Assembly (NCBI GenBank): GCA_964016885.1
Contig: OZ024742.1
Span: forward strand, 203,732,001 to 203,796,000
DNA length: 64,000 bases
Direction: 5' to 3'
Origin: Eledone cirrhosa
Lineage: Eukaryota
Position 1 is the first letter of the stretch. Every line of letters starts with the position of its first letter. Below are positions 25,438-62,881 of the stretch, in pieces. The position numbers and the translations under genes are program-made. A model generated the notes under the pieces. The model had not been told where the DNA came from, did no database searches, and saw only the letters and a program-made list of their open reading frames with translations.

Positions 25438-25830
25438 CTAAGGCGGGTAAAATTCCCGAGATCCATGGACGAGTTCTCTCCAGCGGTCTCTGTCCCTCAT
25501 TATCGCTGCCATGTCCTGCGTCTCCAATAGACCAGTGTCTGCCCTTAGGGCATCAACATACGTTAACCTTGGTCTTCCTCTTCTAGTGTGTCCATGTAGG
25601 GGCTCCCAAAAAAGCACTGAGTGCAATGTCAACTCTGGATGTCGGTGAGCATGTCCAGCTAACCTCAGTCTCCTCTGTGTCACTTTTGAGCTGTATGGGT
25701 CTGAGACTTGGACACTGACCAAGAAACTCACTCAGATGGTGGATGGGTGCTACACGAGAATGCTGAGGATGGCTCTGAACATTAATCAGTATACACTGAG
25801 GATGAAAAACTCAGAGCTGTATGGGAACAT
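25438..25830. mobile_element. RTE-type LINE 3' end with 5' inversion, in (TA)n
   Basis: The minus arm 25438-25693 encodes SKVTQRRLRLAGH...GRPRLTYVD...FYPP*. The plus arm 25691-25830 encodes the upstream LYGSETWTLTK...RMLRMAL. Confidence 0.85.
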
Positions 25831-25859
25831 ATATATATATATATATATATATATATATA

Positions 25860-26120
25860 TATAAAGAAAAAGGGATGAAATCGAAAATGCAACTGAAGTC
25901 TTATTTTTTTTTTAAATATATATATTTGGTTCCTTTACCGGTTTCGCAGTTCTTCTGCTTTTCAAAAGGTGAGTTGAGATGGAGGGTCTGTGGTTTTTCT
26001 CACATCTGAGAAAATAAGACTTCAGTTGCATTTTCGATTTCATCCCTTTTTCTTTATACTTCCACTCGTGTAGGACACCTCGGTTATTTTTCATTTTGTA
26101 AAAAAAACCTCACTTTCTAA
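25860..26120. mobile_element. Short inverted PLE-terminal insertion in (TA)n
   Basis: ~47-bp inverted arms at 25861-25908 and 26011-26058. The plus arm has a 60-bp tail and the minus arm carries an HHR. Confidence 0.7.
25932..25969 (-). ncRNA. Minimal type I hammerhead, U3-A8 core variant
   Basis: CCUU-UUGAAAA-GCAG aagaa CUGC-GAAA-CCGG-UA-AAGG. All three stems are intact, with palindromic stem III ACCGGU. Confidence 0.75.
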
Positions 26121-26519
26121 TATATATATATATATATATATATATATATATATATATATATATATATATATATATACATATACATAATACGTGTTTAAAA
26201 GAATATAGAGTAAGTTAGTACAAAGGTTGAATAAAATATATATAATACAATATAGTTTGTTAAAGGTAATACATTGCACATTTAAGTTTCATGCCAAGCA
26301 AAATGCTAAGCAATCATCAGGTAATAAACATAAACCTTCTACAAAAATATCCACGCAACGAATTTTCCGGTATTATATTCTGGGTTAAAATCTTTGTAAG
26401 ACCATCAAATATTTGAGACATATCGATATCATTTGAGACATATCGATATCATTCCTTGCTTAGTTAAAATGATTTTATATATATATATATAAGGAAAGCA
26501 CAAACGGGGAACAATCCCT

Positions 26520-26590
26520 TCCTCAGTTGTCTGCTGGAGATCAAGGACATTTCAACGCATTAAAGACAATATGTCTAACTCCAGTGCGTC
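26520..26590 (-). ncRNA. Non-circularly permuted hammerhead ribozyme candidate (intact copy)
   Basis: GACGCA-CUGGAG-uua-GACAU-A-UUGUCU-uuaa-UGCGUU-GAAA-UGUC-cuugau-CUCCAG-c-AGACAA-CUGAGGA. Confidence 0.72.
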
Positions 26591-27144
26591 AATATCTTGT
26601 GGAAGTTATTGAGGAGAGAAAGAAAAAAATAAACAGAAGGGAAAAAAGGAAAAGAAGGAAAAAGTGCCGAGAACATACCGAAAGGAAGGGGGAACGAGGA
26701 GGGCACATGTATGTATGTAAGTAACCGGAGGATAGAGAGAGAGAAGTCAAAACTGCTATTGAACATAAGTCTGAGGCTTTTATTGACAACGAGATAGGGA
26801 GAGTGAAGAAAACACGTCTAACCTCGGCGGGTGTAGGCGAAAAGAGGCAGAGAGAAGAGAAGACGGAAGTAGTAGGGGAGCAAAGAGAAAAAGAGTAAAA
26901 GTGAGAGGGAGATGGGGAGAGAGAGGGAGATGGGGCGAGAGAGACAGAGAGAGAGAGAGAGAGAGAAAGGGAGAAAAGGAAAGAAAGAAAAAGAATCTCC
27001 CGGTTACTTACATACATACATGTGCTCTCCTCGTGTTCCCCCCTTTTCGGTATGTTCTGAGTTTTTTTTTTCTTTTTTTTTTCCCCCTTCTGTTTAATTT
27101 TTTCTTTCTCTCCTTTTTTTTCCAAATAACTTCCACAAGATATT

Positions 27145-27215
27145 GACGCACTGGAATTAGACATATTCTATTTAATGCGTTCAAATGTCTGTGATCTCCA
27201 ACAGACAACTGAAGA
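27145..27215 (+). ncRNA. Decayed copy of the permuted hammerhead
   Basis: Same layout as 26520-26590, but GAAA is changed to CAAA and stem I is mutated. Confidence 0.5.
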
Positions 27216-27287
27216 CGGGATTGTCCCCCGTTTGTGCTTTCCTTTTATTTTTAAATGCACTTTAGCAAGTAACCACACATATATATA

Positions 27288-27440
27288 TAACGAAGGAAGT
27301 GTGGTAAGGAACCAGATGGACCATAACGCACCAGAGTACTCAATATTTAGGGTAGTAGAGTGGGTAATAGGAATAGGAGTCCAGAAATAGTCATCGAAAC
27401 GGCTTGAGCTCTGCCGTCGGGGTCTTGAACTTTTCCTATA
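27288..27440. mobile_element. Ultra-short inverted insertion carrying the 3' half of an HHR
   Basis: gaaacggcttgagctctgccgtcggggtc plus an inverted tail. Homologues occur at 18975-19030, 34033-34085, 39522-39575, 54516-54707 and 60905-61035. Confidence 0.75.
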
Positions 27441-27451
27441 TCTATATCTAT

Positions 27452-27682
27452 AGTAATAATAATAAATTTGAAGACTAAAATCCAAAGAGGGCTCGATAAG
27501 GATAAATATATATCAAATATATAAGAACCGTAGAGCAAATATTTATTAAAATAACAGATTAAAGTTTAACCAAAGAATCGCTGCTTTCACCCTTAACGGG
27601 ATCTTCTGAAACTAGTTTCAGAAGATCCCATTAAGGGTGAAAGCAGGGATTTTTGCTTAAACTTTAATCTGTTATTTTAATA
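27452..27682. mobile_element. Palindromic 3'-end insertion of the Naiad family at 54722-57610
   Basis: Arms meet at aaact|agttt (27613/27614). The sequence matches 57541-57605 and 62631-62881. Confidence 0.85.
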
Positions 27683-60283: not shown

Positions 60284-60346
60284 AATCCTGATGATATCAC
60301 CGGATTCATATGGAATGGAACTCGGTCATTGAAATGATCATAGTAT
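60284..60346 (+). ncRNA. Partly decayed type I hammerhead
   Basis: CUGAUGA, an imperfect stem II, GAAA and palindromic AUGAUCAU-A. Stem I is weak. Confidence 0.45.
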
Positions 60347-60904
60347 AATAAACCTTTCAAGGATTTACACCAGTCCAGCCTCCTGTTATTTTATTTCATT
60401 TATTTATATATATATATATATATATATATATATATAAACACACACATATATATATATATATTTATATATATATATATATATATATATATATATATATATA
60501 TATATATATATATATATATATATAAACACACACACACACATATATATATATATATATATATATATATATTAATATATATATATTTCGTTTACGTTGCCTG
60601 GTTTGGTATGTAACTGGGTGTGTGATCCAGTCATTTAGATTAGCAGACCGTAATCAATTAAGCAAAAGTACTCGATATTATAAGTATCTTCTACCATAAA
60701 TATCGTATCTCGTGGTTACACAGTTAAATACTTCAATGAAAATATGAAAATCCGGCCTTCTCATTTATCCATTGAAGTATAATATATATATCAAGTGTGG
60801 TAGTTTGCTTGAGGTGTTATGGAATATGAGTTACAAATAAGTTTGGTTATTTGGAAGCCCGACAATGCGTGTTAGGTAATATATATATATATATATATAT
60901 ATAT

Positions 60905-61035
60905 TTAACGAAGGAAGTGTGGTAAGGAACCAGGTGGACCATAACGAACCAGAGTACTCGATACTTTGGGTAGTAAAGTCCAGACATAGCCGTCGAAACG
61001 GCGTGAGCTCTGCCGTCGGTGTCCTGAACCTTTAT
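60905..61035. mobile_element. Half-HHR mini-insertion with inversion
   Basis: Homologous to 27288-27440 and located in (TA)n. Confidence 0.75.
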
Positions 61036-61198
61036 GTATATATATGCATATATATATATATATATATATATATATATATATATATATATATATATATATA
61101 TATATATATATGTAAAAGGTAAACAGAAATAACAACACAATCGGTACAGTATATGGAAGGTATATATTAGGTTAACGCTTGATATAACAGGAAGAGGG

Positions 61199-61234
61199 TC
61201 TTAACGTTTCGCACGATAGTCCTTCATCAGAAGA
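61199..61234 (-). ncRNA. Minimal type I hammerhead in a PLE-like terminal fragment
   Basis: UCUU-CUGAUGA-a-GgAC uauc GUgC-GAAA-CG-UU-AAGA. Palindromic ACGU stem III and one stem II mismatch. Confidence 0.6.
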
Positions 61235-61896
61235 AAGAATGAAAAATAAAATAGATTGAGGAGACGGGCGGGTTGGAATTGGAAAAATGTCTTTAGATAA
61301 AAATAACAGGTCCATTTATGTTGACATCTCTTGCAAAACTGTTGGTGCTGGCGTTTTGTGTATGATTTGTTTTTTTAGAAAAGTGGATGATGGTAGGCGT
61401 TTACCACATATATATATGCGTATATATATATATATATATATATATATATATATATATATATATATATGTATACGATATTAACAAATGGAAACTATATTTA
61501 TAAAACCATATTTATTTCATTATACATATTTCAAGGACACCAAGTTAAATTAAAGTGTGCTTTCATTAGACAAAATATAATATAGATTAGTTTTATAAAT
61601 ATATATTGACATACCCTTAAAAAATGCAACCATTACTGTTGGAAGCTCCCGGATAGTCATATATATATATATATATATATATATATATATATATATTTTT
61701 TTTTTTTTTGAGTATATGTTTGTTGTTTACCGACACCTCAGTCTGCAGATTGGAGCACTCGACAAAGTACGCAGGTTGGTTTGTATACTCCGGAGTAATG
61801 TAAAATAAAATAAGTAAATCAAATATATAAAATTTGGCTTCGTTTATTATAAATTATTATATATAGGCCAATAGGGGGTGAATATATAGGCTAATT

Positions 61897-62080
61897 AGGG
61901 CGATGAATTGGCAGTATTGGCAGAGGGTCAGACGTGCTTTCCAGCGTAGTTACGTCTCTTTACGATCTGAGTTCAAATCCCGCCGAGGTTAACTTTGCCT
62001 TTGATCCTTACAAAGTCGATAAAATAAAGTACCAGTAATACACTGGTTAATTGCTGGCCTTGTGCCAAAAGTAGAAACTA
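61897..62080 (+). mobile_element. tRNA-derived SINE family A
   Basis: Full-length homologue sitting inside a small inverted repeat (61819-61855 / 62135-62171). Confidence 0.85.
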
Positions 62081-62236
62081 TTATATATAGGCCAATAATA
62101 GCTGTCACCGAAATATATATAGCTATAAATTTACAATTTATAATAAACGAAGCCAAATTTTACATATTTGACATACTTATTTTATTATATATATATATAT
62201 ATATATATATACATATATATATATATATATATATAT

Positions 62237-62586
62237 ATGTCAACTCTGGATGTCGGTGAGCATGTCCAGCCAACCTCAGTCTCCTCTGTGTCACTTTTGA
62301 GCTGACTTTTGGGATGCTCCCATACAACTCTGAGTTTTTCATCCTCAGTGTATACTGATTAATGTTCAGAGCCATCCTCAGCATTCTCGTGTAGCACCCA
62401 TCATGTAGCCCCATCATGTAGCCCCTACATGGACACACTAGACGAGGAAGACCAAGGTTAATATATGTTGATGCCCTAAGGACAGACACTGGTCTGTTGG
62501 AGATGCAGGATATGGCAGCGATAATGAGGGACAGAGACCGCTGGAGAGAACTCGTCCATGGATCTCGGGAATTTTACCCGCCTTAG
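62237..62586. mobile_element. RTE-type LINE 3' end with 5' inversion (same family as 25438-25830)
   Basis: Minus arm DGCYTRMLRMAL...HRHPELT and plus arm [13 protein letters not shown]...FYPP*, followed directly by (AT)n. Confidence 0.85.
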
Positions 62587-62630
62587 ATATATATATATAT
62601 ATATATATATATATATATATATATATATAT

Positions 62631-62881
62631 ATTTATTAAAATAACAGATTAAAGTTTAAGCAAATAATCGCTGCTTTCACCCTTAACGGGATCTTCTGAA
62701 ACTAACAAAGACCTTTGTTAGTTTCAGAAGATCCCGTTAAGGGTGAAAGCAGCGATTCTTTGCTTAAACTTTAATTTGTTGTTTTAATAAATATTTGCTC
62801 TACGGTTCTTATATATTTGAAATATATTTATCCTTATCGAGCCCTCTTTGGATTTTAGTCTTCAAATTTATTGTTATTACT
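62631..62881. mobile_element. Palindromic 3'-end insertion of the Naiad family with two CAGAAGA HHR motifs
   Basis: Arms meet near 62711. HHR motifs lie at 62653-62703 (-) and 62720-62770 (+), with a ~90-bp tail. Confidence 0.85.

Follow-up and report, generated by a model that had tools for sequence, protein, structure and literature searches.

A 64,000-nucleotide (nt) window of DNA from Eledone cirrhosa (contig OZ024742.1), repeat-rich, with a repeat set that may resemble that of octopus genomes, and containing 80 TA tracts of at least 10 nt, raises the question of how retroelements inserted in such tracts come to lie there as two arms in opposite orientation. The original prediction listed 13 inserts of this kind, from an RTE family and from several families of Penelope-like elements (PLEs), and attributed them to twin priming, in which both ends of a break in self-complementary (TA)n prime cDNA on the element RNA. 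The analysis described here indicates that, once a TA tract has been opened, its two ends probably do prime cDNA, the two cDNAs then being joined, and that the RTE copies provide the clearest examples. All counts refer to this one window, in which arms were defined by self-comparison, alignments and junction print-outs; inserts are named by their approximate first position.

The two RTE copies (25438 and 62237; Table 1) belong to a family that we take to be RTE from sequence motifs rather than from placement in a tree, and of which only ~400 nt are present in the window. The copies are 95–98% alike, their 3′ arms finish at the identical place, and in each the two arms are adjacent, opposite in orientation and non-overlapping in family sequence. 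The 3′ arm of copy 1 is 73–75% identical to relatives bearing reverse transcriptase (RT) and gives a tblastn match to residues 450–532 of P0004, and the order of the arms was confirmed by 11 relatives at 55–77% identity, three of which carry PF00078. The open reading frame (ORF) ends at the microsatellite 3′ end, and related loci finish in short tandem tails. The bases lost and the microhomologies can be seen directly: copy 1 lacks 9 nt of family sequence at its inversion joint, which shows a 4-nt microhomology (25690–25693), and copy 2 lacks ~21 nt and carries ~17 nt of locally templated filler (62403–62419). Because the arms are contiguous except for these small losses, with AT microhomology at the internal end and microhomology or filler at the joint, both copies are, judged from their sequence, textbook twin-priming 5′ inversions. 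Their internal ends finish in ACAT facing the TA tract. The same four letters close all three internal ends in the window that fall at chance sites (25827–25830, 62237–62240 and 59218–59221), possibly because the primers came from TA tracts that contain TG/CA interruptions.

Public contigs and reads from four of the eight runs listed, representing at most three samples and two species labels, were compared with copy 1 only. The contigs show a colinear family form across the copy 1 breakpoint, including the 9 lost bases. Joints between 25693 and 25826/25830 on opposite strands were recovered, where loose contig ends give family sequence on both sides, and every strand-change joint among those listed has the colinear family form or one near it; no piece among those listed spans the stretch. 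From the 3′ end of copy 1 at 25437, 134 (in run X1), 133 and 70 contigs run off into a TA-like consensus with an agreement of ~0.5. Summed depth is not readable as a copy number, and RAD (restriction-site-associated DNA) run X6, in which 52% of reads look chimeric, was drawn on for family sequence alone. The exact RTE pattern had no match in viral contigs and none in prokaryote contigs.

All 13 predicted sites proved to be inverted two-arm inserts with TA tracts on both sides, and the four junctions quoted for them are present (gggaacat ending at 25830, gttgacat at 62237, ttcctat at 54515 and ~27440, and accaat at 33217). Three additional inverted inserts lie at 29898–41870, which is large, 51609–51749 and 61697–62184. 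The claim that nearly every retro-insertion in (TA)n is inverted was too broad: of the inserts within or next to TA tracts that can be classified, 16 of 19 are inverted, or 16 of 25 when six TA-bounded segments that defy classification (26176, 29428, 60232, 60583, 61111 and 61467) are taken as non-inverted, and the figure carries a detection bias, as inverted inserts are easier to recognise than non-inverted ones. Classifiable but not inverted are a coding PLE at 54723–57612, a solo copy at 18974 and the solo 34033/39575, which sits in CA/TG context. Fourteen of the 16 inverted inserts are Penelope-like, eight being linked to coding sequence and six assigned by anatomy only; the remaining two are the RTE copies.

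The internal breakpoints, for which the original prediction had proposed AT microhomology, were scored at 13 shorter-arm ends, which became 11 independent ends after two repeated family sites were collapsed; 57743, 51609 and 60905 were omitted as they offered no reliable family continuation. At nine of the 11 ends at least 2 nt are in phase with TA, compared with 2.0 ends expected if these sequences were cut at random (p ~6e-6, resampling), and the TA match at ends in the window ranges from 1 to 7 nt. The RTE pair alone shows 2 nt at each end (p ~0.018, weak at n = 2, one scored by eye): the script score of 0 for 25438 arose from an anchor substitution in the sister copy, and the end was rescored as 2 by eye, with contigs matching to 25830.

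The arrangement of the arms separates the inserts into two groups. Arms do not overlap in six of the 16, namely the two RTE copies and four of the 14 PLE-type inserts (27288, 51609, 57743 and 60905). In 57743 the long arm runs from the usual family end back into RT and endonuclease coding sequence and the short arm consists of upstream RT coding sequence with an internal end, which places priming inside the RT coding sequence. The predicted arrest of one arm at an internal chance site holds for this insert and for both RTE copies; elsewhere the arm stops at a recurrent family end point. Since non-overlapping arms exclude fold-back of one cDNA, two-ended priming is well supported for these six inserts, above all for the RTE pair. 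The other ten have overlapping arms, unlike the geometry of L1 twin priming.

For these ten of the 14 PLE-type inserts, self-priming or the use of two RNAs could also account for the structure. Under self-priming a single cDNA would fold back and its far end would be joined to TA by microhomology repair, with no second priming on RNA. Palindromic centres are present at 27452, 62631, 40166 and 34498, and self-priming has been proposed for rotifer PLEs (PMC3846280). Inverted templated copying also seems to occur at such tracts: on the left side of the 57743 insert, with TA on either side, 57634–57695 repeats 62 nt of the right flank (59328–59389), corresponding to the left end of a mariner-type transposon, in inverted orientation at 100% identity, which suggests that flank DNA served as a template for inverted copying when a TA tract broke. 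Apart from the six inserts that self-priming could not produce, its difficulty is that the short arm lies at the family's normal end, a point that a random repair join would not pick, and we regard it as a rather unlikely origin of the overlapping-arm inserts. Of the 14 PLE-type inserts, 13 have one arm that stops at a point and a partner that continues ~35–135 nt further as a tail, which is found at one end only of the inverted unit. The nearer end point recurs where several copies exist, and non-inverted copies end there too. Short-arm ends recur in family E in all three copies, in family A at three ends and in family C in four of six rows at ttccta; the coding copy 54723–57612 shares its end point with the short arms of 27452 and 62631.

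The link of eight inserts to PLE coding sequence was made in several ways. Families A and D have Pfam GIY-YIG matches above cut-off. Families B and E gave no Pfam GIY-YIG or RT match and were assigned by similarity, as a Cys-rich linker and the motif are recognisable by eye and the two resemble one another as well as 332 relatives, and 25860 was assigned by its likeness to the family D end. In the family D insert (30747) the inverted copy comprises ~70 nt (+, 33152–33220) and stops ~38 nt before the tail end, and the short arm of 51609 is a weak match to family A (E 8e-4). The six inserts assigned by anatomy only are the three of family C, 26491, 40166 and 61697, for which the window holds no coding copy. 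Evidence for a hammerhead ribozyme is weak: core-like motifs occur near the ends of families A, B and E and of 25860, with folds no better than those of shuffled sequences, and no hammerhead was found among the 150 of 205 Rfam matches listed, all Rfam matches being sub-threshold. In all three family C two-arm inserts (27379, 54573 and 60978), one arm has the same 5′ start, immediately upstream of a hammerhead-like core; the centres of the family E hairpins occupy a similar position.

Table 1. Arms of the inverted inserts and related retroelement copies in the window
Feature	Position	Arms and strand	Remarks
RTE copy 1, 3′ arm	25436–25693	−	C-terminal coding end to true 3′ end; abuts TA tract 25267–25436
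RTE copy 1, inverted 5′ arm	25690–25830	+	ends ACAT against TA tract 25829–25863
RTE copy 2, inverted 5′ arm	62237–62402	−	ends ACAT against TA tract 62186–62238
RTE copy 2, filler and 3′ arm	62403–62587	+	3′ arm from 62420 to true 3′ end
PLE family A, twin-priming type	57742–59221	long arm −, short arm + (~59066–59221)	GIY-YIG E 4e-5
PLE family A palindrome	34499–36589	two arms	99.7% identical; left at usual end, right tail ~57 nt
Family A relative	51609–51749	~15 nt tail end (−), 125-nt arm (+)	+ arm ends at usual end
PLE family B, single large inverted-arm element	29898–41870		joint near 38340; arms 87–96% alike; right-only tail
Family C	27288–27440	tail arm −, upstream arm +	nearly non-overlapping
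Family C	54515–54707	overlapping inverted arms	tail on right
Family C	60906–61035	tail arm −, upstream arm +	non-overlapping
PLE family D	30747–33220	tailed long arm − encoding RT and GIY-YIG	GIY-YIG E 2e-7
PLE family E hairpin	27451–27682	long arm − with tail, short arm +	short arm ends at family's usual end
PLE family E hairpin	62632–62882		mirror image of 27452 insert
PLE family E, 5′-truncated coding copy	54723–57612	+	TA-flanked, non-inverted
PLE-like insert	25862–26119	arms overlap 48 nt	right tail ~60 nt; 75% to family D end
PLE by anatomy	26491–27278	inverted arms ~250 nt, 84%	short right extension
PLE by anatomy	40166–40735	218-nt inverted arms, 98%	135-nt right extension
PLE by anatomy	61697–62184	inverted arms overlap 50 nt, 94%	interrupted by short interspersed element (SINE) 61897–62084
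Probable inverted long interspersed element (LINE) outside TA	19707–20750	− arm apparent 3′ end, (GAA)n-tailed, + arm RT domain	arms meet head to head near 19905

Element B has long, microsatellite-rich arms and hosts the inserts 30746, 34498 and 40166. A segmental duplication was considered for 29898–41870 and rejected in favour of a single PLE. For all three nested inserts the opposite arm of this element directly shows the corresponding empty site as a plain, uninterrupted TA-rich tract, and so they entered pre-existing TA. TA tracts in the window are insertion hotspots, a circumstance that would suit an origin of each structure as two independent head-to-head insertions in one tract; an assembly fold-back artefact was weighed alongside it. 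The family E arms are no closer within an insert (95.6–95.9%) than between inserts (94.3–97.2%), and 34498 is a 99.7% palindrome. Nevertheless, no TA spacer is found at the joints, only 9 and ~21 nt of family sequence are missing between the RTE arms, a fit that two independent truncations would seldom produce in both copies, and the arms differ by tails and by 2–16% divergence, unlike chimeric fold-backs. Either origin is therefore very improbable. Elsewhere in the window, an old PLE (1–1350), a relative of families B and E, is cut by the window start, a mariner-type DNA transposon remnant lies at 59326–60196 with a short derivative at 54325–54506 whose right end is 95% alike, and a second Tc1/mariner-like remnant lies near 49820–51060. 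A minisatellite with a 24-bp unit, ~455 copies and strong strand skew occupies 5967–16873, and other short inverted repeats near TA-rich sequence occur at 17685–17750, 24162–24534, 43288–43756 and 63563–63676.

Inserts outside TA bear on whether the target alone would set the inversion rate, with two-ended priming as the default for any retroelement entering (TA)n. Inversion is absent from nine SINE copies, from two LINE copies lying in (ATT)n and from the RTE-like copy at 63065. The (ATT)n copies, which we presume to be R4/Dong-like, are arranged in tandem (44377–48030 and 48088–48760); the first is near full length and frameshifted, and its RT was confirmed. An old RTE-like LINE beside (TTC)n (19707–20750) is probably a 5′ inversion with several hundred bases missing. 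Its RT arm is 60–69% identical to P0132, and we take its − arm to be the 3′ end from a motif and the tail, at a score of 3.0 bits only. One search for homologues of the RT arm was empty and another returned 38 proteins, none of which reach the C-terminus or match the − arm. Thus one probable inversion is found among 13 non-TA retro-inserts (nine SINE, two R4/Dong-like and two other RTE-like), against 16 among the 19 classifiable TA inserts. For LINEs proper, the counts are two of two in TA and one (probable) of four outside, which are too few to tell. Fisher tables of inversion against TA were set aside, as they predate the recognition of 19707 and are confounded by family.

The 43 metagenome loci that encode RTE relatives include neither a TA-flanked one nor one whose coding arm is inverted. 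These loci represent other families and hosts, are in many cases redundant and mostly lack a visible 5′ junction, and as a comparison of sequences they lend weak support to a TA effect. The enrichment of TA microhomology at shorter-arm ends also favours a rate set by the target, whereas the TA-bounded, non-inverted copies 54723 and 18974 do not. Target and family are confounded in the window, since 14 of the 16 cases are Penelope-like and such elements are known both for inverted ends and for TA targets (PMC8557442, PMC3846280); PLE inversions have been described at ordinary sites with 8–10 bp target duplications as well (PMC3846280). Owing to this confounding, we consider it less likely than not that (TA)n alone sets the inversion rate.

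The inverted PLE ends conform to what earlier work has described. In the accounts of endonuclease-bearing PLEs drawn on here, an inverted 5′-truncated copy, a tail at one end only and a bias to (TA)n are described (PMC8557442, PMC3846280), and the mechanism is called an open question (PMC8557442). Families A, B, D and E share with these PLEs a C-terminal GIY-YIG domain and a Cys-rich linker, and the window inserts share with them the head-to-head copy, palindromic joints and (TA)n or AT-rich targets. The tails are longer in the window (~35–135 nt versus 30–40 bp), and, unlike the PLEs in those accounts, four window inserts have non-overlapping arms and one (57743) was primed inside RT coding sequence. 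The purified PAc Poseidon protein cuts and extends both strands, with two adjacent RT starts (PMC11167929). The two adjacent starts matching the tail and the AT-rich targets resemble the window inserts; RT initiation by PAc Poseidon proceeds without homology to the cut DNA, in contrast to the TA match at arm ends here, and inverted products are not treated in the portions of that study drawn on.

Twin priming of mammalian L1 was reportedly described by Ostertag and Kazazian in 2001. Later accounts also describe it (PMC2912911, PMC4245944), and in human cells inversions are stated to be almost exclusively L1, with one exception, Nimb-2 (PMC4245944). The RTE copies share with L1 the non-overlapping arms, the small deletion and microhomology at the internal site and the inversion joint, and their geometry matches the description of twin priming in PMC2912911. 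They differ in being RTE-type elements in an invertebrate-type genome, in targeting (TA)n rather than a T-tract and in showing no visible target-site duplication. RTE-clade LINEs with microsatellite 3′ ends have been reported, a (TA)n-ended RTE being listed for platypus (PMC6007223, PMC13295347), and in these, as in the window RTE, the ORF ends just before the microsatellite. According to the same sources Bov-B copies are rarely flanked by tail-like target sequence, unlike both window RTE copies, which are TA-flanked on both sides; a term search of their main texts found no mention of 5′ inversions. The word 'inversion' was likewise absent from the main texts of two octopus repeat papers, and the main texts consulted, mostly those available without subscription, yielded no description of RTE elements undergoing twin priming, or of a tie between that process and TA targets. 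The PLE part is mostly known already, and the RTE cases are a modest extension of twin priming.

The most likely course, in our assessment, is that both DNA ends of an opened (TA)n tract would prime reverse transcription, the cDNAs then being joined head to head. For the PLE families this would be the ordinary mode of insertion, with one end starting at the usual pseudo-long terminal repeat (pLTR) end and the second ~35–135 nt further on, in the tail, a layout consistent with the two RT starts and two-strand extension of the purified PLE protein (PMC11167929). For the RTE family, one end would prime at the 3′ end, the other at an internal AU of the same RNA, in the manner of L1. The TA tract probably assists, as it offers the same cut site on both strands, easy melting and identical AT primer ends; TA repeats are reportedly break sites (PMC12972899, PMC13645644). 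Double nicking, the order of events and the use of a single RNA or of two are what we infer. Several observations count against this proposal: the RTE copies number only two, within one window, and a target-site duplication around them was not discernible inside the TA tracts; nine of the 11 microhomology sites are PLE family end points, which may have evolved to match the TA target; the ten overlapping-arm inserts are equally explained by self-priming (PMC3846280); and the probable inverted LINE beside (TTC)n implies that inversion is not confined to TA.

These findings bear on the view that 5′ inversion is largely a trait of L1 in mammals (PMC4245944, PMC2912911). For at least some PLE inversions, the non-overlapping inserts favour two-ended priming over self-priming. 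It is conceivable, as a tentative extension, that the source genome carries a (TA)n-targeting RTE family for which twin priming is a main route, with a large inverted share owing to the self-complementary target, and that the same symmetry lies behind the inverted ends of PLEs. If true, frequent inversion in a high-copy RTE family that enters a symmetric target would show that the second priming step can be governed by the chemistry of the target.

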